Source of the DNA: a virus
Lineage: Duplodnaviria > Heunggongvirae > Uroviricota > Caudoviricetes
DNA length: 40,925 nucleotides
Virus record (IMG/VR): IMGVR_UViG_2585427787_000014
Direction: 5' to 3' (one strand)
The position numbers and the translations under genes are program-made. The notes below the pieces were generated by a model. That model saw only the letters and a list, made by a program, of their open reading frames with translations. It was not told the DNA's origin and searched no databases. Shown here piece by piece: positions 2,693 through 34,389 of the stretch (position 1 is its first letter; each line of letters opens with the position of its first letter).

Positions 2693-3092
2693 CGTCTTTT
2701 CTCCCCGGGATTAACTCGCGTGGATTATCGGAACGGTGATAGAGCCAGATGCCAATACGGACTGCGACTATTGCTGACACGAAAGCGCCAGCGGAGTACG
2801 CAACCCCTTTCTCAAACATATCTGTGGTGATGCCAGGGAAAGAGGATGCAAAGCCGATGAGGAATGTTGCTGTGGGTTTGTAGAAGAGAAGGCCACAGAG
2901 GAAACTGAGCATCGACAAGAGAACCCGGCGCCGTATCGGATACTCAACTGCTGAGGTAACAAAAATTACCGCACCAGCCAGAGCACCTAGCGCCACCTCT
3001 GGCGGAACTCCTGCGATTACCGCAGCAAGCGACCCCATGCTAAGCCACTGATTTAAAGACTCACTGGTTAGCCCGGCTGACATAATGACCAC
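2679..3092 (-). CDS. holin-like membrane protein
   Basis: 137-aa ORF with multiple TM helices and a charged C-terminal tail (RSDNPRELIPGRKDDDNS); first gene of the lysis cassette. Confidence 0.5.
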   Translation of the reverse strand: MVIMSAGLTSESLNQWLSMGSLAAVIAGVPPEVALGALAGAVIFVTSAVEYPIRRRVLLSMLSFLCGLLFYKPTATFLIGFASSFPGITTDMFEKGVAYSAGAFVSAIVAVRIGIWLYHRSDNPRELIPGRKDDDNS

Positions 3093-3187
3093 CGTTTACT
3101 GTGCATGAAGAACCCCCTTAGTTGGTGAGTCCATCATACACAATAAACCATATATGGTTAAAATTAGTTAAGAATGCTCTTATCAAA

Positions 3188-3204
3188 GTTACCCATCAGG
3201 TAAT
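3188..3204. promoter_or_regulatory. 17-bp palindrome copy (GTTACC-CATCA-GGTAAT) upstream of the lysis cassette
   Basis: Read directly from the sequence; between the tailspike stop (3211) and the holin start (3092). Confidence 0.5.
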
Positions 3205-3210
3205 TTATAA

Positions 3211-4665
3211 TTATTGCAAATATCCTTTTTTGTTTTTTAGCATTCTCGTTAACGCCTCTGTCCATGAAGCCATGATACTGATTTGCCCCTCAACTGTAGG
3301 ATGGATGTTGTCACCATACCATCCTATGTTTGCTCCAAAGTTTCTGCGCATATCAGCAAATTCATAGCCATTTTGTATGCAGAACTTTTTCAGCGCATGA
3401 GTATATTTTGCATGCGCGGCATAGTTAGCAGTAGTTACACCGTGAATACCACTATGCTCCTTAGTAGTAAAAATTGGGAAAATGCCAAAAACAGGGATAG
3501 CACCTGCGGCAACTATTTTATTTGCTATAGTCTGAACGTTTGTTACATACTGAGCTACAGCGGTACCACCTTGCTGGTCGTTAGTTCCTATCATACAAAG
3601 TACAACATCATGAGGTGAGTAATCTGTTGTTGAGCCTTCACCGGAAGACCAATAGGATGAACTGGTACCACTTACAGCATAATTTGTAATTGATACCTTA
3701 CCTACGTTGTCTGAGTTCTGTATAAAAGATGGTAATAGTTTTGTTATATCGTTGCTGCACCATGCGCCATAGCTAATTGAGTCTCCTATTACCCCAATAT
3801 TCAACGGACGCTTAACTCTCACTTTATAGTTTGACGTTTTAAGACAATCCAAAAAAATAACACCTTTGGCATCGCCACTACCCAACAAAATGAATCCTGC
3901 GTTAGCTACGGCTCCATTGAATCTATAAACTGGAAAGCCGTTAATAATAAATGTCATTACTGAATCATTAACAACAAATCCAAGATTAACCTGCTGATTA
4001 CTAACCCATCCATACGCACCACCGTTAGGGAGGGTGTAGGACTCATTTATTGTTTGAGTTCCATAAAAATTAAATCCTTTAACCATTAAGGTTGCACTTG
4101 ACACTGTTACATATGCTAATATAACCTCGTTTGAGGTTTTTATAAATACACCACATGATTCAGACATTCCACTTGTAAACACATTGATCTCATAAAGAGA
4201 ACCATTCTCAAGTGATGTTGGGTATAGAACCTGTGGGTTCGCTGAGAAATCAGATGACCACGTCACAGTGCTTGATGTTACAATTCCTGTTCCTGAGATG
4301 CTAATGTCTCCTGTTGAAACATTATAGACTTTCTGATTCCAGCTCGTCAGATCCACAACAGAAGATAACTCATTTAGTGACATGTTAACTAAACCAGGAG
4401 CAACATTATACAACTCCTTCAAGTCAACGAATGTATTTGCAGGTTTAACTAAAGTTGTTCCACTTACAGGATTTTTAATTCTTAAATTTGTTAATAATAA
4501 CAAATCTTTTGTATTTGGATTTTCATCAATATTAAATGTTATACCATCATCAGCATGAATTTTCAATCCTGATAAATCAGGCCGACCGCCAGAAAAAAAA
4601 AACGGTACCAGCCCCGTCAAAGTATAATGTTTCTCCAATTTCTGAAAGATAACTACGGGCAGCAT
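3211..4665 (-). CDS. tailspike C-terminal part with SGNH/GDSL esterase domain (downstream frame of a split tailspike)
   Basis: 484-aa ORF. C-terminal SGNH hydrolase blocks: GDS (IGVIGDSISYG), GxND (CMIGTNDQQGG), DxxH (GDNIHPT). Overlaps upstream ORF 4577-5788 across a T10 run. AT-rich. Confidence 0.65.
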   Translation of the reverse strand: MLPVVIFQKLEKHYTLTGLVPFFFSGGRPDLSGLKIHADDGITFNIDENPNTKDLLLLTNLRIKNPVSGTTLVKPANTFVDLKELYNVAPGLVNMSLNELSSVVDLTSWNQKVYNVSTGDISISGTGIVTSSTVTWSSDFSANPQVLYPTSLENGSLYEINVFTSGMSESCGVFIKTSNEVILAYVTVSSATLMVKGFNFYGTQTINESYTLPNGGAYGWVSNQQVNLGFVVNDSVMTFIINGFPVYRFNGAVANAGFILLGSGDAKGVIFLDCLKTSNYKVRVKRPLNIGVIGDSISYGAWCSNDITKLLPSFIQNSDNVGKVSITNYAVSGTSSSYWSSGEGSTTDYSPHDVVLCMIGTNDQQGGTAVAQYVTNVQTIANKIVAAGAIPVFGIFPIFTTKEHSGIHGVTTANYAAHAKYTHALKKFCIQNGYEFADMRRNFGANIGWYGDNIHPTVEGQISIMASWTEALTRMLKNKKGYLQ

Positions 4666-5788
4666 TATATTGAGTGAAAGAATCTGTTACCCCATCATAC
4701 TTAATACCCCACTGCCTCGCCCTTGTCGGATATAAGGACTCTACATACATGCCACCTGCAATAGAAAATATATGCCCTCCATCATCAGTAGCGGATCCAC
4801 TGCGGATTACTCCAATATTTCCACCTCCATCATTCTTTGAGTAATAACCAGACCATTCAACCATCATTCCATTGTACGATGAGTCAAAAACAACATGGTG
4901 GGCATTAGATAACACGCCAGACCTTAGATCTGCTACTGTAGAGAAAGTCAGTTTTACAACATTATTGTCGAGGTAATTCTCAAGCGTTCCGAAGTACTTA
5001 TCGCCAATAAATGACGCCCCGTTACTGGACGCAAGATCAGACCTTAAGCTGGCATCGCCAACACTAAGCCACTTACCACTTCCTATCCCCCCTGTGCTCT
5101 CAGGTGTAGAGTCGGTGGGGACTACTTTTGGTAGTGTTCCATCCCACCTGAACCATTCGCCTGAGCTTTCCTGGAGAAGAACGTCGTTAGGATAGTTGAT
5201 GGTATTACCCAGCTCAAAAGACCTCTTCGTGTTATAGCCATACAGTCCATTCTTCAATGTATCAATGATAGTTGCCAATAGGTTACTCAAATCACGATAA
5301 AGATCATCAATATATTTTTTTGTAGCTGCATCTTGTGGCATAGACGGATCACGGAGGTTTCTTATATAGAATCCCAGCGCATCATAGAAACTGGCAATGC
5401 TGCTTGGTCTTTTTAGTGCCAATCTGTTATCACTAAAAGCCTGCTGAATTAGCATCGTCAGTTTATCAAAAGCATCTTCATGTACTTCTGCGAAGAACTT
5501 ACCCTGATTTCTGAGATCTGTTTCCTGGGTAACTGGCAACTCTCTGGATATCGAAATCTGATAACCATTAGCAAGAGGAGCAGACAAAACAACATTTCCT
5601 CCAGTGTATCCACCAGCGCCAGTTACCGTATAACCGGTATCCAGAACCAATTCTGTTACGTTCCCGTTCAGGTCAGACACCTGAACAACCAGGTCGGATT
5701 TTTTGAAAATACGGAAGGTATACGGAAATGATGTCGTAACGCCGTTACCTGTGTATTCGTTGTGGTCAACTTCGGTTGAGACCGTCAT
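4577..5788 (-). CDS. tailspike N-terminal (virion-attachment) part (upstream frame)
   Basis: 403-aa ORF ending five codons after the T10 run. N-terminus (MTVSTEVDHNEYTGNGVTTSFPYTFRIFKK...) matches my recollection of conserved tailspike head-binding domains of epsilon15/phiV10-like podoviruses. Confidence 0.65.
   Translation of the reverse strand: MTVSTEVDHNEYTGNGVTTSFPYTFRIFKKSDLVVQVSDLNGNVTELVLDTGYTVTGAGGYTGGNVVLSAPLANGYQISISRELPVTQETDLRNQGKFFAEVHEDAFDKLTMLIQQAFSDNRLALKRPSSIASFYDALGFYIRNLRDPSMPQDAATKKYIDDLYRDLSNLLATIIDTLKNGLYGYNTKRSFELGNTINYPNDVLLQESSGEWFRWDGTLPKVVPTDSTPESTGGIGSGKWLSVGDASLRSDLASSNGASFIGDKYFGTLENYLDNNVVKLTFSTVADLRSGVLSNAHHVVFDSSYNGMMVEWSGYYSKNDGGGNIGVIRSGSATDDGGHIFSIAGGMYVESLYPTRARQWGIKYDGVTDSFTQYNAARSYLSEIGETLYFDGAGTVFFFWRSA
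4593..4602. repeat. A10/T10 homopolymer at the junction of the two tailspike reading frames
   Basis: Ten consecutive A on the plus strand; both tailspike ORFs read through it (VFFF in the upstream frame, PFFF in the downstream frame). Confidence 0.9.
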
Positions 5789-5842
5789 GTTAAATCTCCA
5801 GATAGTCGCAGCACCCGTTGCGCCGCATATCTGGTTATTCTA

Positions 5843-5864
5843 TTACCCAAAAAACCACATATGG
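5843..5864. promoter_or_regulatory. conserved element TATTACC(C)AAwwwAACCACATATGr (copy B), upstream of tailspike
   Basis: Near-identical to 24884-24907; a partial match at 32062-32080. Confidence 0.4.
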
Positions 5865-5891
5865 ATAGAAAGACTGTAAATACGAATAGAT

Positions 5892-5908
5892 ATTACCTTT
5901 CGGGTAAT
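5892..5908. promoter_or_regulatory. 17-bp palindrome copy (ATTACC-TTTCG-GGTAAT)
   Basis: Perfect inverted repeat; in the divergent region between the tailspike start (5788) and gene 5985-6242. Confidence 0.55.
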
Positions 5909-5944
5909 TTGCAAAACGTGCTGGATAGCAAACAAATTATTTGA

Positions 5945-5964
5945 TACTGTATAAATATACAGTT
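5945..5964. promoter_or_regulatory. LexA (SOS) box
   Basis: TACTGTATAAATATACAGTT fits CTGT-N8-ACAG with an AT-rich spacer; ends 6 bp before the first ATG (5970) and 21 bp before the SD-preceded ATG (5985). Confidence 0.7.
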
Positions 5965-5984
5965 ATTGCATGGAGAAGATTAAG

Positions 5985-6242
5985 ATGCAGCAGTATCACT
6001 ATCCACTGGAAGACGGATTTACCGAAAGGATTCACACGCCGGGAGGCGTCAGGTCACTGGTGGAAGGATCGCACTTGATGAAATTACTCCGGGATCTCGA
6101 TAAGGATGGATTTAATGTCGATGGCCCACTTGCCGAACTGACTGCACTGATTAACTACGTCACCAGCTCACAGATGTCTATGCGGGATCTGCAAACACAT
6201 CTCGACTATTGTGCCGAACAATTACGAAAACAAACCAGATAA
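5985..6242 (+). CDS. small antirepressor-like protein; standalone homologue of the C-terminal domain of the Bro-N protein at 6558-7268
   Basis: GGAG Shine-Dalgarno 9 nt before ATG 5985 (alternative ATG at 5970). About 45% identity by eye over ~80 aa to the C-terminus of the 6558-7268 product (LMKLLRDLDKDGFNVDGPLAELT...RDLQTHLDY vs LMNLLNQLQDDGHDVSGAAAELT...RDIQTHAEY). Confidence 0.6.
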   Translation: MQQYHYPLEDGFTERIHTPGGVRSLVEGSHLMKLLRDLDKDGFNVDGPLAELTALINYVTSSQMSMRDLQTHLDYCAEQLRKQTR

Positions 6243-6272
6243 GGTTTGCAATTACCAAGTGGAGTGCTTATA

Positions 6273-6289
6273 TTTACCTTTGCGGTAAA
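6273..6289. promoter_or_regulatory. 17-bp palindrome copy (TTTACC-TTTGC-GGTAAA)
   Basis: Embedded in a longer imperfect inverted repeat (GGAGTGCT...AGCACTCC) just downstream of gene 5985-6242. Confidence 0.5.
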
Positions 6290-6379
6290 TTTACATAGCA
6301 CTCCTCTTGTGCCATAGTAATCGGGCACTGGCAAAATCCAGTGCCGGGATTGGCGTCCCGAGTTACTAAGTGGCGCATA

Positions 6380-6401
6380 CCACGCCAGACGTGGTTTTTT
6401 T
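6380..6401 (+). terminator. rho-independent terminator
   Basis: Stem CCACG / CGTGG with loop CCAGA, followed by T7. Confidence 0.55.
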
Positions 6402-6557
6402 ATGCGTTAAGCACAGCTATATCCGAATTATGGTGGGCTGGGCAGGGGTCCGAAAGGACGCCGGTACCACTTAGGCCGGTACGCCAACCTTGTCCAGTTC
6501 ACCACCAGTAATTGGCGTTGCGGTGGTGATTAAAATCACTAAGTGGAGATAACCACC

Positions 6558-7268
6558 ATGGCTAATGCTCAAACTGCCATCTTCAAATTTGAATCTGTTA
6601 ACCCTATCCGTTCCATCATTATCGATGGCCAACCATGGTTTGTAGCCCAAGACGTTTGTAGTGCGCTGCGTATCCAAAACGTCACCCAAGCACTTGAAAA
6701 ACTGGATGATGATGAAAGGTCTATGTTCAACATAGGGCATGAACATCGTGCAATTTTTGACAGCCGAGTAAAAGAGATCAACATCATCTCCGAGTCAGGC
6801 CTCTACACACTGATCCTCCGCTGCCGCGACGCAGTGACACCAGGCACTATCCCATACCGCTTTCGTAAATGGGTTACAGGTGAGGTTCTTCCTCAGATCC
6901 GCCGCACCGGAAGTTACATTAAAAACTCGCTCCCGCAGGAAGAGCGCATAAAGATGGTTGCCGACCAGGTAGCCAACGCCACAGCATCAGCAGTGATGCA
7001 GGCGATGAAGATAGAGAACAAAACCTACAGTGCCCCACTGAAGCCCGGCTACCGCAGCCTGATTCATTCGCCGTCTGGTGTTCTCGGCCTGACGGAGAAC
7101 TCACTGCTGATGAATCTGCTGAACCAGTTACAGGACGACGGGCACGACGTATCGGGCGCGGCGGCGGAGCTGACCACCATGTTCTGCTACATCGTCGGTG
7201 TGAGCAAATGCCTGCGTGATATCCAGACGCACGCGGAGTACATCAACGACAAGGCAGGGTTCTTCTGA
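6558..7268 (+). CDS. Bro-N domain antirepressor-like protein
   Basis: GGAG 9 nt before ATG 6558 (track ORF begins at GTG 6543). N-terminus (AIFKFESVNPIRSIIIDGQPWFVAQDVCSALRI...) has Bro-N/antirepressor character; C-terminal ~80 aa paralogous to the 5985-6242 product. Confidence 0.6.
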   Translation: MANAQTAIFKFESVNPIRSIIIDGQPWFVAQDVCSALRIQNVTQALEKLDDDERSMFNIGHEHRAIFDSRVKEINIISESGLYTLILRCRDAVTPGTIPYRFRKWVTGEVLPQIRRTGSYIKNSLPQEERIKMVADQVANATASAVMQAMKIENKTYSAPLKPGYRSLIHSPSGVLGLTENSLLMNLLNQLQDDGHDVSGAAAELTTMFCYIVGVSKCLRDIQTHAEYINDKAGFF

Positions 7269-7339
7269 CGGGCGGCGGCACAGGGATGTGCCTTTAAATA
7301 ATTCTGTACAGATTGCAGACTGTGGGTGAATAGCGTACT

Positions 7340-7356
7340 ATTACCTCAAGGGTAAA
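7340..7356. promoter_or_regulatory. 17-bp palindrome copy (ATTACC-TCAAG-GGTAAA)
   Basis: About 60 bp upstream of small ORF 7416-7595. Confidence 0.5.
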
Positions 7357-7415
7357 CGGATTGGTTTCATTTTTATTAATCCGTGTAATGAACTTATGAG
7401 ATATGAGGTAATGTC

Positions 7416-7595
7416 ATGCGAAACGAAAAATTGCAGATGCGTAGAGCGCAAGCTGCCGCAAGACGTTCTTTCAATGGAAGCGTAGAGTGCGTAAAAGTTA
7501 CTATGACAAAAGATCACGCAAGTCGCGTATCCCGCGCTTTCTTTGATTCTCGTAACAATAAGGAAAATTATGAGTTCGTCTGCGTCGCAGAATGA
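7416..7595 (+). CDS. small basic protein (59 aa) overlapping the start of the YafO-like gene; candidate antitoxin/regulator
   Basis: Not in the ORF track (<60 aa). ATG preceded by GAGGT; translation MRNEKLQMRRAQAAARRSFNGSVECVKVTMTKDHASRVSRAFFDSRNNKENYEFVCVAE; overlaps the next gene by 26 nt in another frame. Confidence 0.3.
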   Translation: MRNEKLQMRRAQAAARRSFNGSVECVKVTMTKDHASRVSRAFFDSRNNKENYEFVCVAE

Positions 7596-8115
7596 TAAAA
7601 ATCAAATTGTCAGATATAAGGGTCGAGTATTGCATACGCAAAATTTCTCGGCCCTTTGTGCATCTGATCTTGAGCTGAAGAAAGTATCTGATGCCTTTAC
7701 CCAGTATTGGAAAACGGGATACCATCCATCTCTTGGTAAAGATGCTGCATTTGCTCGTCCGACAGAAATGCTTAAACTAAATGTCAGGCATACTCATGTC
7801 GATAACCAAGACTATATTCCAGAAGATAGTGATAAAAAACACACTGGTAAAAAATCATCTTGGGATGCATGGAAAAAAATAGCGTCTGTGCAAGTAAAAT
7901 GCATACCAACAAGTAATTGCTTTTTAGTTTATTCGGTAAATCACAATCGTGATGCGCTGGTTATGTTTTTTGTTGACGCAGATGCCCACAACATAACTGA
8001 GCAAGAAGAGTTTAAAGAGGCAGCAATCACTATCAGTTATCAATTCTTTGAGAAAACAAAAACAGAACCAATGCCTTTAGAAGAAGATCTTTTTTCTGAT
8101 AAATGGAAGGAATAA
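7570..8115 (+). CDS. YafO-family toxin-like protein (type II TA-like candidate)
   Basis: AAGGA before ATG 7570 (track start 7543). Translation resembles E. coli YafO as I recall it (SLGKDAAF...NVRHTHV...CFLVYSV). AT-rich; has its own terminator. Confidence 0.45.
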   Translation: MSSSASQNDKNQIVRYKGRVLHTQNFSALCASDLELKKVSDAFTQYWKTGYHPSLGKDAAFARPTEMLKLNVRHTHVDNQDYIPEDSDKKHTGKKSSWDAWKKIASVQVKCIPTSNCFLVYSVNHNRDALVMFFVDADAHNITEQEEFKEAAITISYQFFEKTKTEPMPLEEDLFSDKWKE

Positions 8116-8136
8116 GCCCGCGCCGCGGGCTTTTTT
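8116..8136 (+). terminator. rho-independent terminator after the YafO-like gene
   Basis: GC-rich stem GCCCGCG / CGCGGGC followed by T6. Confidence 0.65.
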
Positions 8137-8208
8137 GTGGACGAAACAAAAGTCAGTGCTACACTCATTGACGCCACATTGAGGTGGATTATAGATGGAA
8201 ATTTCACA

Positions 8209-8370
8209 ATGAAAAAAGCATTTGCTGCACTGTTCGTTTTGTTGTCTCTGGTAGCTTCAACTCAGGCCTTTGCCGGTCGTTGTCAGCACGACAGCGATAC
8301 TGCCGCTGACGGCTCCCGCTGCGGTGGGCGTTCTGCGGATTCCCGCCCGGGTGGCGGTGGCATTCGTTAA
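8209..8370 (+). CDS. small secreted peptide (signal peptide plus ~30-aa Gly/Arg/Asp-rich tail)
   Basis: Internal start of track ORF 8137-8370: MKKAFAALFVLLSLVASTQAFA then GRCQHDSDTAADGSRCGGRSADSRPGGGGIR. Confidence 0.3.
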   Translation: MKKAFAALFVLLSLVASTQAFAGRCQHDSDTAADGSRCGGRSADSRPGGGGIR

Positions 8371-8375
8371 AAACA

Positions 8376-8393
8376 AGGCCGCGAAAGCGGCCT
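8376..8393 (-). terminator. hairpin terminator between convergent genes
   Basis: Stem AGGCCGC / GCGGCCT with loop GAAA; T-rich tract follows on the minus strand, downstream of gene 8402-8698. Confidence 0.5.
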
Positions 8394-8401
8394 GTGACAT
8401 G

Positions 8402-8698
8402 TCACGTTCCTTTTCTGAATGATAGCCGTTCGAAAAATGATGACATTCCACCGCAGACAATAGCAAAGATGATCCCACCAAAGAAGAGAAGGCCAGCCTG
8501 CCACCACTCCCACCGCCATACATCCACAGCGCCAATCATACCAACAATCGCTCCAACAAACGGAATATAACTCACGACAAAAGCAACGGGAGCTGCAATT
8601 ACCCAGTGCAACCCCCACCATGATTCAAGCCCAGCCATAATTGCTGCCAACTGAAAAAGACCAACGACGATATAAACAATGAATCCTATAGCTTGCAT
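8402..8698 (-). CDS. small integral membrane protein (last gene of the internal-virion operon)
   Basis: 98-aa ORF with hydrophobic helices separated by a Trp-rich loop (VDVWRWEWWQ). Confidence 0.5.
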   Translation of the reverse strand: MQAIGFIVYIVVGLFQLAAIMAGLESWWGLHWVIAAPVAFVVSYIPFVGAIVGMIGAVDVWRWEWWQAGLLFFGGIIFAIVCGGMSSFFERLSFRKGT

Positions 8699-8710
8699 GT
8701 AGTCACCTAT

Positions 8711-8884
8711 TTACCCATTAAAAATCAGAGGCCTCCCCTCAATAAGGCTTGCAACAAGAACTACTCCCTGCACAACAAAGATGAACCAGCAAATAGCTTG
8801 AGTCTGAGGGTTAAGAAAATATTTGTAGCGGTCAATAAATAACAATCCACCAGAAATTATCACACTCAAAATAATTAAAAACAC
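8711..8884 (-). CDS. small hydrophobic protein (57 aa), GTG start
   Basis: Not in the track. AGGAAG Shine-Dalgarno then GTG; translation VFLIILSVIISGGLLFIDRYKYFLNPQTQAICWFIFVVQGVVLVASLIEGRPLIFNG; fills the gap between the 824-aa gene and 8402-8698. Confidence 0.25.
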   Translation of the reverse strand: MFLIILSVIISGGLLFIDRYKYFLNPQTQAICWFIFVVQGVVLVASLIEGRPLIFNG

Positions 8885-8893
8885 AACACTTCC

Positions 8894-11368
8894 TTATTGC
8901 GGAGTGACATCCTGAGGTCGCCACCAGTATGTCTGGTTAAACTCTTTCTTCGAACGTTGCTCCATTTTACGCAAATAGCCTGGTGAAAAATACTCCTGCA
9001 TCTGGTTAAAGATCATGTGATCGAGAGCCGCCTTCAAGTACCAGAGATTCGCACCAGGCATCAAACCTTTCCCCAGCTTCACCAGATCACCACCAGTCTG
9101 CTCACTCTTCCCTTCCACAGCATTTAACGGTATGCCCTGAGCAATCTTCACTACGTCATCAACCAGACCAGCTACCGGACCAAGCATCGACGCCAGCGCG
9201 CCGCTTCCGTACCTAGTGTGATCTGACAATAAAAAGTCACCATAAAGGCCAAGACCACCACCTTTCAGTAGAGCACCAAGCCAGAATTTTGCGGCATCTT
9301 CTCCTGTCATCTCTCGAGGATTACGACCAGACGCAAGGTCGTTAAGTTGTTGCGACAAAGCGCCAAGAATGGTCGTACTGGCAATAAACGTCGCAATATA
9401 TGCCGCACGCCCACCAGCAGACGGCATACCCATAGCGCGTGACCAGTGACGCATAACAACCGAGATAGGGAACGATTTAAACAGGAAAACACTTCTCGTT
9501 AATTCACCTTTCCATGTTCCACGCTGAATACCAGAACCGGTTATCAGTTGCTCACGTGCTCCCGGTGTAATAACAGCCATATCAACTTCTTCAGTTACGG
9601 CACCGAGCAGTTTACGCATTGCCTCAAATTTCACGCGTTCAGGCTCACCAAGATGTTTAACTGCTGAATCAGGGATACGCATAATGCTTTCCGGTGTCAG
9701 CATCGTATTATTACCGTTCCCCCAGTCCTCCTGTTGCGCCAGCTTCCATACGCTCCAGTCTGTGTCAGTAATCCCTTTGCTTTTCAGGATACGAAAATCA
9801 GAGTCATCGAGGCTACGAAGGTCTGGTGTTCGTGACACTACTTCTCCCAGGCTTCCCATCATGGTTACGCCATAGGCGCGCTTGTGCGCATCTGACCATG
9901 CTGTAAGCCCACTGGCACGCATTACCGCCGTTGCCGCCCAACGAGACACTGACGGCCCCATATTATCCATCGCCCAGCGGTTAACGCTGCCAAGTAGAGA
10001 TTCCATCGCCAGACCAGCGCGGCGCGCCCGCGCAAGTTCTGTACGGTTCGTTGGGTCCATAGCTTCAAGCTGGTTGCGGAATAACTGGTTCATTGGAAGG
10101 TTGGTAACCTTCGCAGACAGATACATGGTTCCAAGATCAGAGAACGATGACAGCAACGCGGATCCGAGTCTGCTGGCAACCAGCCAGTTGCGGATATTGT
10201 CAGACCATCGCGCGATGTGCGGATTCGCTACAGGCTGTGTCTTTCCGGAAATAAAGTTGTACAGATTCTCTGTGTTGTTCGCCAGCCGCTCGACTTTACC
10301 GGTTTTACTCGGGTTAGCTGTTGCCGTTTCTGCCTTAACCTGATCAAGAAGGGAGCGGAAAACATGATCGGGGTTTGGACCATATGTTTCCACCAGTGCA
10401 ATATCTTTACTGATACCTTCCAGGTGACCGACCATGATTTCCCATAGAGAGCGATCGCCATAAAGTTGCTGATATTGCAGATAGGAATCTGCATCTTTGA
10501 AATGTATCTGTCGTGATGCATTACCACGGTTAGCACGTGCGCCGGAAATTCGCATTCCGGTATCAGTAAGCTTATTCAGCCCACCAGTAGCGATCGTGTT
10601 ATAAGCCTCTCCAAGAAATGCAGACAACTCGGCATCGTTCATCAGTTGTCCATCGGCTCGGATATAATATTTGCGATCCAGCTTACCTATAACATCGCTA
10701 ACCCACTTATCCTTTGATACCGCCCCAACCTTTTCCATAGAATGATGTTGAGGGATCCCCCAGTTTTCGAGATAGCCAATGTCCCCACCAGCATCATTAA
10801 ACCTGCGGCGCAGTAGCTCTGTCACTTCTCTCCACGCCTTAGCACCTTTTCTTGCTTTAGCATTGCCAGTATTTTGCCCCCGCATTTCATATACCAGGTC
10901 ACGTACGCCCGCTTCATCTTCAAACAGACCAAAAAAGCGAGGATCAACTGCTTCGAATGCCTCCTGCAATTGACTCAATGCATAATCACGGGTGGCTTTT
11001 GTTCTGGATTCAACAGAGAGGAAATTCGATTTACCGTCTGCATTAAAAGCAATAGTACGGTTAAGAGCGCCAAGTTTCCCATCAGCCCCTTGATAGCTAT
11101 TGATAAATTTATCCAATCTCTGACGTGCGGCTATAGTGAGGGCCACACGACGTTTCTTTAATGCCGCTTCTCGCTGTAATTCTTCAGATGCCAATTGTGC
11201 TGCACGATATAGCCGCTCTGATTCGGAAAGTTGTCTCCACGACATCGGGTCATCACGAGCAATGGAGCGCATATTTCGATAAATGCGGTCTTCAATGTTC
11301 TGTATTTCTCGCGCCGTTAACGTGCGCTGCGCCGCCTGCTGGACCGCTTGTATACATTCCTGTCTCAT
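8894..11368 (-). CDS. large internal virion/ejection protein (T7 gp16 position)
   Basis: 824-aa ORF, last large gene of the block before the tailspike side; function assigned by position and size only. Confidence 0.6.
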   Translation of the reverse strand: MRQECIQAVQQAAQRTLTAREIQNIEDRIYRNMRSIARDDPMSWRQLSESERLYRAAQLASEELQREAALKKRRVALTIAARQRLDKFINSYQGADGKLGALNRTIAFNADGKSNFLSVESRTKATRDYALSQLQEAFEAVDPRFFGLFEDEAGVRDLVYEMRGQNTGNAKARKGAKAWREVTELLRRRFNDAGGDIGYLENWGIPQHHSMEKVGAVSKDKWVSDVIGKLDRKYYIRADGQLMNDAELSAFLGEAYNTIATGGLNKLTDTGMRISGARANRGNASRQIHFKDADSYLQYQQLYGDRSLWEIMVGHLEGISKDIALVETYGPNPDHVFRSLLDQVKAETATANPSKTGKVERLANNTENLYNFISGKTQPVANPHIARWSDNIRNWLVASRLGSALLSSFSDLGTMYLSAKVTNLPMNQLFRNQLEAMDPTNRTELARARRAGLAMESLLGSVNRWAMDNMGPSVSRWAATAVMRASGLTAWSDAHKRAYGVTMMGSLGEVVSRTPDLRSLDDSDFRILKSKGITDTDWSVWKLAQQEDWGNGNNTMLTPESIMRIPDSAVKHLGEPERVKFEAMRKLLGAVTEEVDMAVITPGAREQLITGSGIQRGTWKGELTRSVFLFKSFPISVVMRHWSRAMGMPSAGGRAAYIATFIASTTILGALSQQLNDLASGRNPREMTGEDAAKFWLGALLKGGGLGLYGDFLLSDHTRYGSGALASMLGPVAGLVDDVVKIAQGIPLNAVEGKSEQTGGDLVKLGKGLMPGANLWYLKAALDHMIFNQMQEYFSPGYLRKMEQRSKKEFNQTYWWRPQDVTPQ

Positions 11369-11373
11369 TTAAT

Positions 11374-13176
11374 TTACCCTCTCAAGAAACACGCCACAGC
11401 GACATCAAACAGGCTGGAATCCTGTATTGCCTGCTCACTTTCCCTGTTCGCTTCATCCAGTACTTCACGCGCGCTGCGCGATTGTGGATTACCATCATCA
11501 TCCAGCACGGTGATTATCATGTCCGGAGATTCAAGCAGCGAGTCTTCAGCTATACGCAGATCAATATCTCCTGCCGGATCTGCCATCATTTTTTGTTCTG
11601 TCTGTTGCAATATCTTACCGGGCTCAAAAGGAGCTACTTCGTCTGGCGTCCTGACCTCTGCTGTTTTATAGAATGAAACAGCCTGAGCATTAAGTTCACT
11701 TTCTGCCTGCTGTCGCCGTGCCAGTTCTGCTCGAGCTTCAAAAAACTGACCGCCAGGCTCATGCGGTGCCAACGCGTTACGGGAAAATTCCAGGCGTTCT
11801 TGTGCCTGCCGGATTCGTTGGTCAATATCGCGCAGTCTGGCCTGTTTATCTGATCGAGCACGAGATAAAGCCTTACCGCTACCGGTTGGCTCTTCTGCAA
11901 GAATTTGTGCGCGCTGTTCAGTGAGATTTTCAATAATTCGTTGGCTATTAGCGATTTCAGACTGGTAAACCTGTCTATCGCCACGCGGCAAAAGCTGCGC
12001 GGCCTGTTCTTCAAGCAACCGATTTTCTATAGCGCGCGCCGTTACTCCATCATCTACAGATGACAGAGCCTCATTAACTGCCTGAGACAGCAGACTCTTG
12101 CGCCCAGGAATTTCACTGAAAGATGCAGACTCAACAATGCTGGCAACGTCTACAGGCCTCCCCTGGCTAACATCAGACATGGCTTTTCGCAGAGCCTGAA
12201 TGTGCGAATTACGCGAAAGCACGTTGATCGGAACGCCGGGCGCAATATCAATTTCAGCATGATGAGCGGCATTCGCCGCCAGTGCAGCATCGATATCAAC
12301 TGGTGAAAAATTTGGTGCGTTTGTAGACTCGCCGCGAGAGTTAATAAATCTGCCGACACCACCAAACGCCACCCCAAGAACAGCATCAATAGCAATTGCC
12401 TGTCGATCCAACACATCATACTGGTTAGCCATTTCGCTATAGCCACCATCACGAAGCGTTTTTGCAGTAAGCCCACGCTGTGCCATACCGAACGCAATAT
12501 TTGTACCTGCGGCATAGGCAATATCTGGCGTTGCACGTACTGCTGTTGCTGCGGCGCGTCGCACTGAACTCTCACCCGTCCGCGCAAGCTGAGCCGCCAC
12601 ACCTTCCGCCAGCGCACCACCAGCACGTAACCCGAGGCTCATAGGGATCAGTGTTCCGGCACCAGCAGTAATGCCCTGCACTAATCCCGCTTCCTGCGCC
12701 GTCCTGAAATCAACACCCTGTGCTGTCAGCCGTTCAAACTCAGAAAAACCCTGTAGCGAAGTTACCGCCGCTGCACCTCCGACAGGACCTCCGAGCGTTG
12801 TACCGACAACAGCCTGCCCGCCCATATCGAACAACCCATAAAGAACCTGCCCGGCGGTTCCGGTTGTCGCGGCATCAGGCGTCAGCCGCTTAACCTGCTG
12901 CTCTGCTAGTTTTCTCTGCTCAGCAATGTATGAAACTGAAGTGTCATTGAGCGAGGTGTTTTCGTTAACAAACTGAGCAATCGGGGATACGATTTTATCC
13001 ATCCCTGCCCATAGCAACTGATCTGGCTTTGCCACCAGCCCGGAGTACAAACCAGACAATGCCGCTCCTACAGCATTGTCGAAAAAACCAACATCGCTGT
13101 TAAAGCCAGCTGGATTTGATGCTGCTTCGTCAAGCTGCTGATTCTGGTTTACTGGATTAAGGCCAAAGTAACTCAT
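11374..13176 (-). CDS. internal virion/ejection protein, Gly/Ala-rich
   Basis: 600-aa ORF; ATGA-type overlap with the upstream gene; low-complexity G/A-rich central region. Confidence 0.6.
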   Translation of the reverse strand: MSYFGLNPVNQNQQLDEAASNPAGFNSDVGFFDNAVGAALSGLYSGLVAKPDQLLWAGMDKIVSPIAQFVNENTSLNDTSVSYIAEQRKLAEQQVKRLTPDAATTGTAGQVLYGLFDMGGQAVVGTTLGGPVGGAAAVTSLQGFSEFERLTAQGVDFRTAQEAGLVQGITAGAGTLIPMSLGLRAGGALAEGVAAQLARTGESSVRRAAATAVRATPDIAYAAGTNIAFGMAQRGLTAKTLRDGGYSEMANQYDVLDRQAIAIDAVLGVAFGGVGRFINSRGESTNAPNFSPVDIDAALAANAAHHAEIDIAPGVPINVLSRNSHIQALRKAMSDVSQGRPVDVASIVESASFSEIPGRKSLLSQAVNEALSSVDDGVTARAIENRLLEEQAAQLLPRGDRQVYQSEIANSQRIIENLTEQRAQILAEEPTGSGKALSRARSDKQARLRDIDQRIRQAQERLEFSRNALAPHEPGGQFFEARAELARRQQAESELNAQAVSFYKTAEVRTPDEVAPFEPGKILQQTEQKMMADPAGDIDLRIAEDSLLESPDMIITVLDDDGNPQSRSAREVLDEANRESEQAIQDSSLFDVAVACFLRG

Positions 13177-15686
13177 TGCGGAATATCTCCGGAGAATCTC
13201 TGACGCTTCTGTGTCAGATTAAGAACAACGGGAGAACCATCATCTTTCAGCAGATAACCAGTACCAAGTTTCACCAGGTACTGACTATCGCCGTAACTTT
13301 GCAAACCATACTGACCAGGCGGTGTTTTTATCCCGGAGCCGACAACTTGTTCATTCCAAGCCTGATTAACCTGCTTATCGAATTGCTCTGCAGACATTCC
13401 CCACGGCAAAAGGACATTCCCCATTCCGTTATAGTCATGCACGCCACCTGTAGCTACGTTAACAGCCTGTTTCCAGACATCATTGTCAATTTCGCCTGAT
13501 ACCACGCCTTTTTTCGCCATCACACCAGCGTAATAGTCCTTTGCGATCTCGTATGCCATTGATGCCCCCTGAGCATCACCAGCAAATGCATCCTTCACCA
13601 TGTCAGAAAACTCAAGGCGAAGATCAGCATCTTTAGGCATCGGAATACCTTTCGCATCATCAGTACCTTTACGAGCAGCCGCGCCAGCAAGAATTGTCTG
13701 CGCAGCGGTTTCAGGAGACACGGAAACATCCGGATTAAACCAGTTTTTTTCTGCCAAAATACCACCAGGCTTATCCATCAGTATCCCGGCAACGGCAGCA
13801 GATGGAGCGTTGGCACTGATCTGCTGTAGTGCTGACATATACACCTGCCCACCACCAGTGCTTTGCCTGATGGTATCGAGATATGCTGCCTGTTGGGAAA
13901 CTGGCGCATCACGAAAGAAAACACCGATTTGATTGGCCTCGTCTTTGGAAAAGAACGTCAGTGGAGTGCCATATGACTTGGCAAGATCACTAACCTGAGC
14001 GGCACGCAAGGCAACGCTCTGTCCAAAGTTATCCTTATTGCTCATGTCGATAGGCTTTGCCTGTCCGGCGGCAAGAGAGAACTGCACAGGATCCGATTGC
14101 CGCTGCTTTATCACCTGATTTGCAGCCGAAACAACGTTGTCATAAAGAGCTGCGCGAGCCGCATAACCCTCCCCTGTCTCACCAGTATCTGGGCGCAATT
14201 GCTCAACATATGCTGTAATGCTGCTTGTCGGCATGTTGCGGAAAGAGCCTATATACTGTCCGGCGATCTGCGTATTTCTGAACTCGGTATATCGCAGGTT
14301 TCCTTCTCTGACGCCATAAGCTGCAATAAAATCATCCTCACCTGGTGGGTTAGGAAATTCAACGCCACGCATATACGCAGCCGTCGCATCGCGAACCCGG
14401 CTGTCGAGCATCGTTTTATATTCAGCCTGCTGTTGTCTGGCTAGTGCATCAGTCTGTCGCAACACGCTGGCCTGATCTGATTCACTTAAAGCATCGAACC
14501 AGGCTACACCGGTATAACGTTTATTTTTTGTCGGTAGCTGAGAAAGCCCCAGCGCGGCACTAACACCATCAGTTAACTGCTGATCACTGTATGGCTGGCT
14601 ACCGTTTTCATGATGGATAATGGCTGCACAAAGCGCCTTCAGGGTATCAGGATTTGATGCATCGAGAGGCTCATCAGCAGAAACGCCAAGTTGTTCGCAC
14701 ACTGCTTTGATATACGACATAGTGTCATTTTTATCAGTAGGCGGTGCCCAGCGATTAATTATCTCGCTGACGGTATCAATACCCTGCCGCTGATACGACA
14801 TCAGGTTCCGCCCTAATGCACGAATACCGTGTTCAGGGGTTTCGAATTTGGCAAAGCGACCATCATCACCAGTCTGCCCAACCCACGGATTAGTTTTGCT
14901 GTATTCAAGATTGCCGGGGTTATTGTTGCGTATACCGCGGGTACGATCGGAAGAGCCACTATCTGCTACAGCACGGCGAGATCCAACAGCAGTATCGCTT
15001 AACTCGCCGTTTTGCTGTCTTACCTGAAGATAGTTTGCTCCAATAGCATTTTGAGCAGTTGCTTTTGCTGTTGCTTCTTTAAACTCGATTTTCTTGGCCC
15101 GAATCTGCTCGTCGCTCCAGCCATGCGCAATGCCGTAATCCTCAATTTGCTGGAAAGTTTGCTTATTAGCCAATACGTATGCGGCGTTGTCGCCATACAA
15201 TGCTGCGGCATTTTTACCATTGTTCAGCAGCGTAGCCTGAAACTGACCTTCTTCGTAGGCATTTATTTGCCCTATCTCGTGCCGCCCGGCCTGCGTAGTG
15301 AACTGAATACGCTGCTGCTGTGCCTGCTGCATGAAAGCATTACGAGCCTGTTCATCTTGCAGCGACATAGCCAGTTGTTCGACCTGAGCATCAAACTGCT
15401 GCGTATACTCCTGACCTTTTCCAATAGCATTTTTCCCTTTCAGGTTAAGCAAACCTGTTTCAGGGTTATTCAGCAGATCGCTGCTTATCTGACTGAGGTT
15501 AAGAGATGCCTCCTGTGCCAGAGCGATATTGGCACGCTGTTTTGCCTGACCAAAAACATCAATTGCCTCTGTCCCTGCCCGAACAAAAGCATCACCAATA
15601 CCTGGCTGAGAAAACGTCTGCAAGCCTGCTGACTGAACTCCACGACTCTCAACCTGACGTCCGGATACTGTTGGTACAACTGGCAT
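13173..15686 (-). CDS. large internal virion protein (T7 gp15 position)
   Basis: Start taken at Met 15686 (MPVVPTV...), preceded by GGAGGA and overlapping the upstream stop as TAATG; track ORF extends to 15761. Confidence 0.6.
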   Translation of the reverse strand: MPVVPTVSGRQVESRGVQSAGLQTFSQPGIGDAFVRAGTEAIDVFGQAKQRANIALAQEASLNLSQISSDLLNNPETGLLNLKGKNAIGKGQEYTQQFDAQVEQLAMSLQDEQARNAFMQQAQQQRIQFTTQAGRHEIGQINAYEEGQFQATLLNNGKNAAALYGDNAAYVLANKQTFQQIEDYGIAHGWSDEQIRAKKIEFKEATAKATAQNAIGANYLQVRQQNGELSDTAVGSRRAVADSGSSDRTRGIRNNNPGNLEYSKTNPWVGQTGDDGRFAKFETPEHGIRALGRNLMSYQRQGIDTVSEIINRWAPPTDKNDTMSYIKAVCEQLGVSADEPLDASNPDTLKALCAAIIHHENGSQPYSDQQLTDGVSAALGLSQLPTKNKRYTGVAWFDALSESDQASVLRQTDALARQQQAEYKTMLDSRVRDATAAYMRGVEFPNPPGEDDFIAAYGVREGNLRYTEFRNTQIAGQYIGSFRNMPTSSITAYVEQLRPDTGETGEGYAARAALYDNVVSAANQVIKQRQSDPVQFSLAAGQAKPIDMSNKDNFGQSVALRAAQVSDLAKSYGTPLTFFSKDEANQIGVFFRDAPVSQQAAYLDTIRQSTGGGQVYMSALQQISANAPSAAVAGILMDKPGGILAEKNWFNPDVSVSPETAAQTILAGAAARKGTDDAKGIPMPKDADLRLEFSDMVKDAFAGDAQGASMAYEIAKDYYAGVMAKKGVVSGEIDNDVWKQAVNVATGGVHDYNGMGNVLLPWGMSAEQFDKQVNQAWNEQVVGSGIKTPPGQYGLQSYGDSQYLVKLGTGYLLKDDGSPVVLNLTQKRQRFSGDIPQ

Positions 15687-16231
15687 TATAATCCTCCGGG
15701 TAATCTGGTTCCTGCTGCTGCCCCGATTGGCGCAGGAGTGCTTTGAGTAAACGGACTCCACGTCCCACCAAACATCTGGTACGCACCGTATGCCTTCAGA
15801 GGCGCAGTGAGCAATGTTGTTGCTGCTCCCACATTCACCTGTTTACGGGCTGAACTGGCTTCTGCTTTATAGTTGGCAGCCTGAACCTGATAACCGTAAG
15901 CCTCGCGTTGCGCGTTATTCACCGTCGTCAGAGAATCAAGAGCGCCAAACTGGGCAGTGTCGCCAAATATATCCAGCGCGTTACCTGTAGATAAATCAGC
16001 GCCGGTAGCCCCCATTGTCGCCGCCTGTGTACCAAGCCGCTGTCGGGTCTCTCTGCGCCGTTGCTCAGCTTCAGCGTTACCTCTGTTTATTGCATCATTT
16101 GCCTGAGCTGTGGCTATATCTGCGTTCGCTTCTGCAACCTTCGAGGCATACTTTCCCTGTTGGTACTGGGTGTATGCCTGAATGCCACTCATGGCGAGCA
16201 TTGCGCCACCAGCAATAACCGGATCGCACAT
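15686..16231 (-). CDS. internal virion protein, T7 gp14-like
   Basis: 181-aa ORF; N-terminus MCDPVIAGGAMLAMSGIQAY resembles the T7 gp14 N-terminus as I recall it; Ala/Gln-rich. Confidence 0.5.
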   Translation of the reverse strand: MCDPVIAGGAMLAMSGIQAYTQYQQGKYASKVAEANADIATAQANDAINRGNAEAEQRRRETRQRLGTQAATMGATGADLSTGNALDIFGDTAQFGALDSLTTVNNAQREAYGYQVQAANYKAEASSARKQVNVGAATTLLTAPLKAYGAYQMFGGTWSPFTQSTPAPIGAAAGTRLPGGL

Positions 16232-16695
16232 TATTTTCTCTCCATGTGAAATCTGTGGAAATTAAGACCAAGAGCACCATAAGGCGCGGCTTCTTCAAGC
16301 CTGAATCCAAGCCAGTGCAGCCATGCTTTGGCAACATGGTTTCGCTCGTCGACGTAGTTTTCCAGGCGCGGATAAACTGCCAGCATCTGCTGCAATACCG
16401 GGCGGCAGTGGCGCAGAAATGTCTTCTGATATTTTTCAATACGGCTTGTCCCGACCAGCCATGGCGTACCATTGCCACCGATCATTGACGCCGGAGATAC
16501 ACCAAACATGGTTACCAGTTCTCCGTTCGCAAATCCTGACCAGGCCATAGTCGCAGTGCGCAGACCAACACGCAGCGCATCTTCGGTAGTCATCAGCGAT
16601 ACCGCATACAGTTCGTCAATATCAGCCTGACGAACATCCGGCAAAATCATCTGAAGATGCTCTTCGGTTGCGGGAATAATTTGAACATCGATCAT
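16231..16695 (-). CDS. virion protein (T7 gp13 position)
   Basis: 154-aa ORF, translationally coupled on both sides; assignment by position. Confidence 0.45.
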   Translation of the reverse strand: MIDVQIIPATEEHLQMILPDVRQADIDELYAVSLMTTEDALRVGLRTATMAWSGFANGELVTMFGVSPASMIGGNGTPWLVGTSRIEKYQKTFLRHCRPVLQQMLAVYPRLENYVDERNHVAKAWLHWLGFRLEEAAPYGALGLNFHRFHMERK

Positions 16696-25609: not shown

Positions 25610-26500
25610 ATGCTTGACTTCATCCGTGACATTTACTCCTCTTTCCGCCAAGCATCTCTTGAGCGGGTGAAAAGCCCGTTCCTTGGGGCATTTGTTTTTT
25701 CCTGGCTTTGCTTTAATTGGCAGATGTTAGCAATTCTATTTTTTAGTTCTAAGGATATTGAAAAGCGCCTTGCTATTATTAATGGCTCTTTCGGCATCGT
25801 CAGCTTTTTAATTGCGCCAATATGCACTACAGCATTGATAGTTATCCTTTTACCGCAAATTAATAAATTGATTACAATAATACAAGATAAACCTAACTCA
25901 GACACAATTGAAATGAGCCTTGCATCTAAAATAAAGATCGCCGAACTGCAGCAACTATTAGCAGAAAATGAAGCAAGAAAGAAACTTGCTGATAAAAAAG
26001 AAGAACGCTTCATTGAAGAGAATATTATTTCAATAAAAAAAGACCATGAAAAAGCAATAGATAACCTTAAAGACAAAGAAAGTAAAATCTCAAATCTCAC
26101 GGACACAATAACTGAACTTCAGAGCAAACTGGTTAAAGCTGAGGCCACTCTCAAAGTTGAACAGGAGTCAAGATCCCAAGTGCAGAATGAATTGATTATT
26201 GAAAAAGAGAACAAGCGGAAATTAGAAGACAACATTCTGCACCTTAATTTAAGTTTAAAAAAAAACCAATCAGAATTGGCCATTGCAAAAGAAGCCTATG
26301 ATAATACCTTGATGGCTTATAATGAACTTAACACAACATTAAAAAAAGCAGAAAGCTCAATAATAAACTTCAATGCTAACTTTCCTTTTTTAACTGACAT
26401 AAATAACAGCACCCCAAATACATACTTAAAAATAAATAAAAATGCATGGGAGCATTTAGTTAGTTTAAATTTAAGTCTAAAGGAGAAAATACAAAAATAA
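25610..26500 (+). CDS. AT-rich accessory gene: membrane-anchored coiled-coil protein of unknown function (candidate exclusion/defence gene)
   Basis: 296-aa ORF on the strand opposite the structural genes, inserted between terminase and portal. Two N-terminal hydrophobic helices, then a long K/E/L/N-rich heptad-like region. AT content visibly much higher than surrounding phage genes. Confidence 0.6.
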   Translation: MLDFIRDIYSSFRQASLERVKSPFLGAFVFSWLCFNWQMLAILFFSSKDIEKRLAIINGSFGIVSFLIAPICTTALIVILLPQINKLITIIQDKPNSDTIEMSLASKIKIAELQQLLAENEARKKLADKKEERFIEENIISIKKDHEKAIDNLKDKESKISNLTDTITELQSKLVKAEATLKVEQESRSQVQNELIIEKENKRKLEDNILHLNLSLKKNQSELAIAKEAYDNTLMAYNELNTTLKKAESSIINFNANFPFLTDINNSTPNTYLKINKNAWEHLVSLNLSLKEKIQK

Positions 26501-32159: not shown

Positions 32160-32945
32160 TTACTTGATAAATCCTGACGCCTTTCCCCGCCTGTATTCCT
32201 CCATCAGCCACTGCGCCGGTGTTATTCCCCCCAGGGTGGCGGCGTTAGGCATACACCCGAAACTTCGCCCTGGTGGATGGTAAACGTCTCTCCCTGTGTC
32301 CGGAGGCGTACTCATGGGTTCTGGCTTTGCCTGTATGCTGATCACCGGATCGGGTATCTGCTGTCCGGAAGCCACCTTTTTCGCCCAATCATCGAGCAGC
32401 CTGCGCGCGTGTTTCTCAACCTCAATCTCGCTAAGCTGGCGCTGATACATTGCACGGCGGGTATCACATACGACCCAGTACATAACCGGATGCCGCCACG
32501 GGAATCTTTCGGGACCACCAGGATATAAACTTTTTTCCTTGCTGTACCGGTGAAACTCCGTCATCACATCGTCAATGGTGACGCCAAGAACCATCTTGCT
32601 GTCTTTACACCACTTGATAAATTGCCCTGGCGACGGCCAGAACGGAGATTCACTGGCGCGGGCGTGGCGCATACCAGCAGAAACCTGTTCACGGGTTCGG
32701 ATCCCACCTTCGGCAAACGCAGCAATCCACTGCTGTTTTGCAGCGACTTCCTGCTCTGGCATCTTCAGGTTGGTTACCACTGCCGCCGGAAACAGTTGTT
32801 TCAGCTGTTTGAAAAGGGCATCAACAAGCCTCTCTGCTGACATGTTCACCACATTGTCATTGTTGACGTACTGATGCTCATAACCTGACATGCGAGAAAG
32901 GGCTTCTCCGTCACGGTTTTGTATCGCGGTAAAAACGTTGTTCAC
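32160..32945 (-). CDS. replication protein P-like (lambda P family helicase loader)
   Basis: Similarity to lambda P as I recall it (AAKQQWIAAFAEGGIRTREQVSAGMRHARASESPFWPSPGQFIKWCKD). Proposed GTG start at 32945 preceded by GGAGGA, overlapping the O-like stop as GTGA; track ORF runs to 32960. Confidence 0.7.
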   Translation of the reverse strand: MNNVFTAIQNRDGEALSRMSGYEHQYVNNDNVVNMSAERLVDALFKQLKQLFPAAVVTNLKMPEQEVAAKQQWIAAFAEGGIRTREQVSAGMRHARASESPFWPSPGQFIKWCKDSKMVLGVTIDDVMTEFHRYSKEKSLYPGGPERFPWRHPVMYWVVCDTRRAMYQRQLSEIEVEKHARRLLDDWAKKVASGQQIPDPVISIQAKPEPMSTPPDTGRDVYHPPGRSFGCMPNAATLGGITPAQWLMEEYRRGKASGFIK

Positions 32946-34354: not shown

Positions 34355-34389
34355 AGCTATTGCCTGATATTTATTTCAGATAATAAATA

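Follow-up and report, generated by a model that had tools for sequence, protein, structure and literature searches.

A phage-borne gene pair encoding a YafO-like protein and a small basic partner lies at positions 7416-8115 of the 40,925-nucleotide window (the whole stretch of viral DNA that we analyzed; IMG/VR record IMGVR_UViG_2585427787_000014). The explanation that we favor, and consider probable, is that the pair is a two-gene moron resembling a type II toxin-antitoxin (TA) system, in which a YafO-family RNase would be neutralized by its partner and transcription would be controlled by a phage operator. The original prediction had proposed a YafO-like toxin gene overlapped by a small upstream ORF, and both reading frames were confirmed, each with its own SD sequence. 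The larger (7570-8115, + strand; SD AAGGA at 7560-7564) encodes a long-form YafO-like protein of 181 aa and pI 6.4, a candidate endoribonuclease toxin. The smaller (7416-7595, + strand; SD GAGGT at 7405-7409) encodes a candidate antitoxin or partner of 59 aa, which is basic as predicted (pI 9.9, net charge +4.6; residues 1-30 have a pI of 11.4). It ends inside the start region of the toxin gene, and the 26-nt overlap encodes the C terminus of the partner, NYEFVCVAE.

An HMM search for the YafO family, suggested in the original prediction, gave a match of Pfam profile PF13957 (YafO_toxin) to residues 46-148 of the 181-aa protein at E = 6.6e-5, with a score (23.4 bits) that narrowly missed the Pfam gathering threshold of 25 bits. 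The same profile has a precomputed assignment on a cluster representative that is 98% identical to this protein, and 40 of the 62 profile-search relatives that we scanned matched it (best E 5e-29). In PHROGs the protein belongs to phrog_1651 (function unassigned; E 2e-50); NCBIfam and PADLOC gave no match. A word-indexed search returned only 27 relatives, from Enterobacterales without exception, and a profile built from 20 relatives recovered only 73 proteins at E < 1e-3 from 1.84 billion cluster representatives. Short relatives (131-134 aa) matched E. coli K-12 YafO (b0233) at 1e-13 to 1e-17. Direct comparison of the 181-aa protein with K-12 YafO was not significant by BLASTP, and hhalign against the single K-12 sequence was likewise not significant, only suggestive. 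Because direct comparison fails, yet the profile reaches short YafO proteins that match K-12 YafO, we judge from these sequence comparisons that the homology is real but transitive, and that the 181-aa protein is a divergent, long-form homologue of the YafO family with a predicted RelE fold.

The dN/dS of the large gene is 0.06-0.15, indicating strong purifying selection. No relative was found when species-representative genomes were scanned with family patterns, and the wider family alignment contained no conserved block for pattern searching. Our literature search found no paper on the 181-aa protein. Its family name is already public, and hence not new: an identical protein (WP_032214330.1) and gp44 of phage TL-2011b are both named "type II toxin-antitoxin system YafO family toxin" by NCBI (PGAP). 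Because the toxin gene already bears this name, we regard the pair as a modest new variant and not as a new kind of system. What is new is the long-form clade and its features, the dedicated 59-aa partner family, the swapping of partners, the cargo slot, and the probable wiring to a phage repressor.

By its sequence, the window is a Uetakevirus-like prophage of E. coli, of the epsilon15/phiV10/TL-2011b type. At the cassette region, the match to phage TL-2011b is 98.7% and that to E. coli chromosomes reaches 100%, and in a near-identical E. coli record the prophage is adjoined by guaA, the reported integration site for this phage group (PMC9782041). Collinearity between the annotated E. coli context record and the window is limited to 5613-25548, and gene positions outside that interval were derived from the window itself. 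The left neighbor of the cassette is a BRO-N antirepressor-type gene (6543/6558-7268), and the right neighbor is a 53-aa backbone gene (8209-8370). Directly after the BRO-N stop codon, a hairpin identified by sequence reading (GGCACA-GGGA-TGTGCC, 7277-7292, + strand) forms the left boundary of the slot; phiv142-3 keeps it, as do several diverged loci. Rfam models placed an isrK-like RNA (6325-6401) and a C4 antisense RNA (6426-6509) upstream of the BRO-N gene, and the a1b1 targets of the latter were found too; together these elements look like the antirepressor control region of a P1-type immI locus. The BRO-N protein of a related phage favors lytic growth (PMC9782041).

The slot is variable. 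Of 5426 complete E. coli genomes, 503 have its flanks and 61 carry the full cassette, and at least five kinds of alternative cargo occur: a second YafO-like pair, a 210-aa protein, a DUF4760 protein, a pair consisting of a 108-aa protein and a DUF2335 protein, and, in phiv142-3, two small ORFs. The cassette has a GC content of 0.36-0.42, compared with about 0.5 on both flanks, which bears out the description of the unit as AT-rich. The terminator attributed to it is also present, as a strong intrinsic terminator at 8114-8138 (+ strand) with an 8-bp GC-rich stem (8114-8132) and the T-run TTTTTTGTG, catalogued as inverted repeat I16. The pair is thus an AT-rich moron that occupies a variable cargo slot next to the antirepressor region, with the atypical composition, the variable presence and, given its putative promoter, the independent transcription unit by which phage morons are recognized. 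It resembles described morons (PMC3594210) and prophage accessory or defense hotspots in having a promoter-like site and terminator of its own, in its low GC relative to the flanks, and in being present or absent between otherwise collinear prophages, with alternative cargo in the slot. It differs in that its promoter seems to be wired to the phage's own repressor. PADLOC (PADLOC-DB) gave no defense-model match for the toxin, the partner, or the neighboring genes. In guaA-integrated Uetakevirus prophages, this position next to the antirepressor genes makes a small hotspot for cargo that is worth mining.

Sequence reading placed a putative sigma-70 promoter at 7313-7341 (+ strand), with the -35 hexamer TTGCAG (7313-7318) separated by a 17-nt spacer from the -10 hexamer TACTAT (7336-7341). 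It was too weak (7/12 matches) to be called in a consensus scan; hexamers resembling TTGACG/TTGCAG-N17-TAATAT are found in the same register in diverged loci. A palindrome at 7341-7355 (TTACC-TCAAG-GGTAA; TTACCTCAAGGGTAA) begins at the last base of TTGCAG-N17-TACTAT and so overlaps the -10/+1 region of the cassette, and the same register recurs at 6246-6274 and 35213. The original prediction was right that a palindrome lies upstream of the unit and mistaken in regarding it as the unit's own, as TTACC-N5-GGTAA occurs in 12 exact copies throughout the window (0.03 expected). The motif does not vary among diverged phages where it precedes the cassette, stands upstream of unrelated cargo in the slot as well, and is carried by the neighboring antirepressor units; cassettes in other phage backbones do not have it. 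Three related sites fall within the cI/cro intergenic region (34354-34509), which separates a cro-like gene (34124-34354, - strand) from a cI-like HTH gene (34509-35093, + strand), both re-derived from the window, and two more bracket a PL-like promoter (TTGACA-N17-AATTAT) past the cI terminator. Repeats at 33380-33500 lie outside the cI/cro intergenic region.

Because the motif is phage-wide and includes the cI/cro intergenic copies, TTACC-N5-GGTAA probably serves the immunity repressor, or Cro, as an operator. Its distribution, which extends to unrelated cargo, argues against an operator belonging to the cassette. The overlap of the palindrome with the cassette promoter predicts repression in the lysogen, where the pair would be silent or damped, and such repression fits poorly with a simple role in abortive infection or prophage stabilization. 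If the operator does silence the promoter in lysogens, classical post-segregational killing and constitutive defense would not apply.

In the mechanism that we favor, a single mRNA would start at the weak sigma-70 promoter and end at the intrinsic terminator. The 59-aa basic protein would be made first, and the 181-aa protein would follow by translational coupling through the 26-nt overlap. The larger product would act as a YafO-family endoribonuclease of the RelE/HigB (BECR) fold, cutting mRNA and halting translation, and the small, largely disordered basic protein would bind the acidic toxin and neutralize it, likely through the conserved segment at its center (VKVTMTKxHAxRVS) and the NYEFVC motif at its C terminus. 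The immunity-type operator over the promoter would keep the pair damped or silent in the lysogen and allow its expression at infection or induction. As the partner has no recognizable DNA-binding domain, the pair probably does not regulate itself. If the promoter answers to the immunity repressor, deployment of this TA-like pair would be tied to the lysis-lysogeny switch and not to antitoxin turnover alone.

The same wiring would also suit a phage-deployed RNase, which the repressor would keep off together with its partner until infection or induction, when host or competitor mRNA would be degraded and the partner would time or limit the activity. The operator-like palindrome over the -10/+1 region, the recurrence of the motif in the cI/cro intergenic region and at the PL-like promoter, and its presence in the antirepressor units are all consistent with such a role, as is the location of siphovirus relatives inside a late tail operon. 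However, we infer repressor binding from the motif, and a lone operator may repress weakly; moreover, in other backbones the cassettes come without the motif and with promoter-like sequences and a terminator of their own, as would be expected of morons that are expressed in lysogens. We therefore regard deployment by the phage as rather unlikely. Its toxin/neutralizer core is the same as that of the TA-like moron, from which it differs in role only, and the alternatives as a group differ from the favored explanation mainly in role.

Several lines of comparative evidence bear on the small ORF. In all 43 toxin-carrying viral loci, and in the other loci examined, a reading frame of 59-60 aa is kept open at this place, with an overlap of 17-26 nt, and its SD sequence and start codon are kept where the leader has diverged. 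The non-overlapping part of the ORF has a dN/dS of 0.22-0.34 (about 0.25), and this value and the conservation together rule out a chance ORF. The family makes up the whole of phrog_6685 (E 1e-44). We conclude from these comparisons that the ORF is a real gene and that its product is a dedicated partner belonging to a new family. The original prediction had noted that the ORF was absent from the track. The NCBI annotation of E. coli chromosomes systematically misses the gene, although in the annotation of TL-2011b it appears as hypothetical protein gp45.

The 59-aa protein matched no family in Pfam, NCBIfam, or PADLOC and no relative in a PDB sequence search with the partner profile, and neither Pfam, the PDB search, nor an AlphaFold2 (AF2) model revealed a DNA-binding family or fold. 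It could not be aligned with YafN, which rules out a YafN or Phd-type antitoxin. In the AF2 model of the partner alone (pLDDT 55), helices span residues 2-19 and 32-38 and the remainder is disordered; such a model would be expected if the protein were an antitoxin that takes up its fold on the target, and is no proof of an antitoxin role. We also rejected an RHH-like reading of VKVTMTKDHASRVS, because the second helix is missing and AF2 predicts no such fold, and an RNA antitoxin, as Rfam gave no matches inside 7300-8200. A potential RNA pairing between the leader and the toxin start (z -2.3) did not appear to be conserved when it was compared by eye with the leader at a single diverged locus (L037).

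Partner and toxin are inherited together across phages. A profile of the 59-aa family retrieved 39 members from 5.8 billion proteins, and all homologues came from toxin-carrying contigs wherever this could be checked, the lengths of their contigs agreeing with those of contigs that bear the toxin. In Pectobacterium, the toxin/partner pair has adjacent locus tags (R9X49_20450/20455). Two paralogues of the small protein (58 and 55 aa) stand in tandem ahead of a 42% identical toxin from another podovirus-like context (P0041), and a 33% identical toxin from Arsenophonus (P0045) is preceded by an 84-aa homologue. Other toxins have other partners. Those with 45-52% identity lie in the tail modules of siphoviruses, where a DUF6246 gene and the tape-measure gene flank them, and have a different basic upstream ORF of 63 aa, an overlap of 8 nt (ATGAnTAG), and their own terminator; uniting these siphovirus-type partners with the 59-aa, podovirus-type partners in one family was not supported (hhalign E 0.14). 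A toxin subtype with 32% identity has upstream partners of 108-139 aa that are unrelated to the 59-aa protein and overlap the toxin gene by 11-14 nt, and where this subtype occupies the same slot as the window pair, its partner has 108 aa and the overlap is 14 nt. At least three unrelated partner types thus occur next to YafO-like proteins, and the charges within the pairs are complementary (partners, pI 9.2-11; toxins, pI 5.1-6.4).

The gene layout is that of type II TA systems, with genes that are small, adjacent, co-oriented, overlapping, and co-inherited. We found no YafN-type cognate antitoxin, nor a DNA-binding antitoxin with its own operator, which is a common but not universal feature of type II systems. 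The conserved upstream position, the overlap, the co-inheritance, the swapped partners, and the complementary charge amount to the genomic signature of a cognate pair of toxin and neutralizer. These observations support the antitoxin-toxin arrangement of the original prediction, with the small ORF encoding a conserved, co-inherited, and apparently translationally coupled partner in the standard order, and the 59-aa protein is probably the antidote of the toxin.

A regulator or cofactor would be another reading of the partner, which might be an arginine-rich nucleic-acid-binding peptide or a chaperone, with the YafO-like protein controlled in some other way. The N-terminal half of the partner is predicted to form an arginine-rich helix, the protein resembles no antitoxin family, and three unrelated partner types accompany YafO-like proteins, all of which would suit this reading. 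Strict adjacency, upstream placement, overlap, and co-inheritance across backbones are nevertheless a hallmark of antitoxins, and an exchange of partners is nothing unusual in type II systems. Some antitoxins, PaaA2 among them, also lack a DNA-binding domain. We consider a regulator or cofactor unlikely. Returning to the partner as neutralizer, we can extend the TA-like explanation in a direction that we offer tentatively and hold to be possible though doubtful: the pair would be wired into the immunity circuit, one operator would keep both genes off, and the RNase would be freed at infection or induction as a takeover nuclease or kill switch, while the partners, of at least three unrelated types, would represent new families of non-DNA-binding antitoxins dedicated to long-form YafO-like toxins.

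The large protein differs from K-12 YafO by more than the N-terminal extension that had been predicted. That extension is present (about 17 residues), and in addition some 25 residues are inserted internally (88-112), with low pLDDT and conserved tryptophans at positions 98 and 101, and the C terminus is prolonged by a tail of some 20 residues with the conserved sequence MPLxExxLFxDKW. The family core is retained. An alignment that includes K-12 YafO shows no variation at F43, G56, H74, H76, or Y121, and conservation of at least 90% at D58, P64, and H140. Together with the transitive homology, these shared residues sustain the proposed resemblance to YafO.

An AlphaFold2 model of the 181-aa protein (pLDDT 70, pTM 0.69) has a RelE-type alpha/beta fold, as found in the RelE/ParE BECR-fold superfamily. 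In RelE-type RNases the catalytic residues lie on a face of the sheet, and in the model the conserved His, Tyr, and Asp residues are located on predicted strands 55-60, 72-77, and 118-124 and just past strand 129-135. A Foldseek search of the PDB with this model ranked HigB2 first and gave no significant match (top E 0.29), a search that the floppy insertion probably weakens; a Foldseek search of the BFVD viral models gave no match, and a PDB sequence search with the toxin-family profile found no solved structure of any relative. The toxin is acidic, which is atypical for a ribosome-binding RNase of the RelE type. That the long-form protein has lost or changed its activity and serves with its partner in a non-toxic role is highly unlikely: its acidity, the insertion and conserved tail that are foreign to canonical YafO, and the sub-threshold Pfam score could be read in this way, but the invariant His, Tyr, Gly, and Asp positions are common to K-12 YafO, purifying selection is strong, and the dedicated upstream partner is always kept.

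E. coli K-12 YafN-YafO, a type II TA system whose toxin is an mRNA endoribonuclease of the BECR/RelE fold (PF13957), has the same order of antitoxin and then toxin. Its YafO shares with the window protein the core motifs F..Y/W, FG(K/R)D, RP, (R/A)HxH, TSD/TND..LVY, and AH, as well as the transitive HMM homology and the RelE-type fold. K-12 YafO has 132 aa, compared with the 181 aa of the window protein with its three extra segments, and pairwise similarity is not significant. The antitoxins are dissimilar: YafN is acidic, has 97 aa, and is of the Phd/YefM type, whereas the window partner is basic, has 59 aa, and is mostly disordered. The yafN and yafO genes are separated by 2 nt and belong to the dinB operon; the window genes overlap by 26 nt and occupy a phage moron slot, where they are probably regulated by a phage operator and not by themselves. 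A dependence of YafO on the ribosome has been claimed and was later questioned, and no structure of YafO has been solved (PMC8546651, PMC11980606); among the RelE-type toxins of E. coli, it is the one that is understood least. Because its mechanism is unsettled, "ribosome-dependent" should not be assumed for the window protein.

HigB2/HigA2 of Vibrio cholerae and other ribosome-dependent mRNases of the RelE/HigB group (5mje, 7nbu, 6af3) have sequence identities of 3-9% to the window protein. In higBA the toxin gene comes first, which is the opposite of the order in the window pair, and HigA antitoxins carry an HTH domain, whereas no DNA-binding fold was detected in the window partner. The phage-borne long-form clade, with its tiny partners, is a compact system for studying neutralization and the role of the extra segments. 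The second long-form subtype (WP_000479990.1), that with 32% identity to the window toxin, shares the slot, the flanks, the upstream palindrome, and the overlapping two-gene layout; its toxin has the same insertion and lacks the DKW tail. This subtype also occurs in a Klebsiella plasmid-prophage, in Rahnella, and in phage EC.W1-9.

Within the same pairs of loci, synonymous divergence was lower in the small ORF upstream of the YafO-like toxin candidate (compared over 7416-7569) than in the toxin gene itself (compared over 7597-8115). Third-position identity was 0.61-0.76 for the small ORF versus 0.47-0.57 for the toxin gene, with dS values of 0.35-0.9 and 1.4-2.9, respectively, and the 26-nt overlap between the two reading frames was nearly invariant. 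The low dS of the small ORF and the near-invariance of the overlap thus point to some constraint at the nucleotide level, such as mRNA structure or coupling, or else to mosaic recombination.

Other partner arrangements were found at related loci. In L054, which encodes a 42%-identical toxin, small-partner paralogues of 58 and 55 aa lie in tandem 5' of the toxin gene (2136-2523 of that locus). A distant YafO-family gene with a 73-aa upstream ORF is carried by the small MOBQ plasmid pA1254_4 of Acinetobacter pittii (L058). In front of this unit (approximately 1020-1140 of L058) lies an AT-rich palindrome that is long and almost perfect (ttaattcttaattagaaattattct...agaataatttctaattaagaattaa); unlike the arrangement in the phage cassettes, it resembles a classical TA operator.

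The palindrome TTACC-N5-GGTAA, which lies upstream of the cassette at 7341, is present in 12 exact copies in the window versus 0.03 expected (3189, 5893, 6274, 7341, 24948, 25563, 28604, 32046, 32108, 34439, 35151, and 35213), and sites with one mismatch are present at 28586, 34054, and 34391. Clusters of sites fall between the cI and cro genes (34354-34509), at a PL-like promoter, 5' of a DUF1064 gene, and 5' of several plus-strand accessory genes; together they probably form the operators bound by the immunity repressor or by Cro. If so, Uetakevirus-like prophages would have a wide repressor regulon. A variant site, TTACC-N6-GGTAA, accompanies three copies of CCCGTTTTTGGG at 33380-33500, within the DnaT/HTH_36 replication-initiator gene (32942-33757, minus strand), and these repeats are probably origin iterons.

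The cassette occupies a slot (7269-8208) between a BRO-N antirepressor-type gene (6543-7268) and a 53-aa gene (8209-8370). This slot is a cargo hotspot: in other E. coli prophages with the same flanks (L003 and L062-L065), it holds either a further YafO-like subtype paired with a 108-aa partner, a hypothetical protein of 210 aa, a DUF4760 protein, two overlapping genes for a 108-aa and a DUF2335 protein, or two small ORFs. Elsewhere, the window differs at 25610-26500 and 2900-5600 from L053, the complete E. coli prophage record closest to it. The differing parts comprise the tailspike region, several early genes, and the gene that follows the phage tRNA-Arg (in the window an ORF of 296 aa without a Pfam match, in L053 a Gp49-family gene). 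These differences are ordinary phage mosaicism, and annotation coordinates are not transferable from L053 to the window.

Directly 5' of the BRO-N gene, Rfam models identified an isrK-like sRNA (6325-6401, 67 bits) and a C4 antisense RNA (6426-6509, 66 bits), both above the gathering score, and a c4-a1b1 target element (6312-6364) slightly below threshold. The position of these elements (6312-6509) suggests that ant in this podovirus prophage is under antisense control of the P1/P7 immI type. Further upstream, an 85-90-aa ORF (5970/5985-6242) encodes a homologue of the C-terminal third of BRO-N and has a palindrome copy to itself (5893). The two proteins both match phrog_450 and phrog_15539, and the shorter one may be a free-standing antirepressor C-domain.
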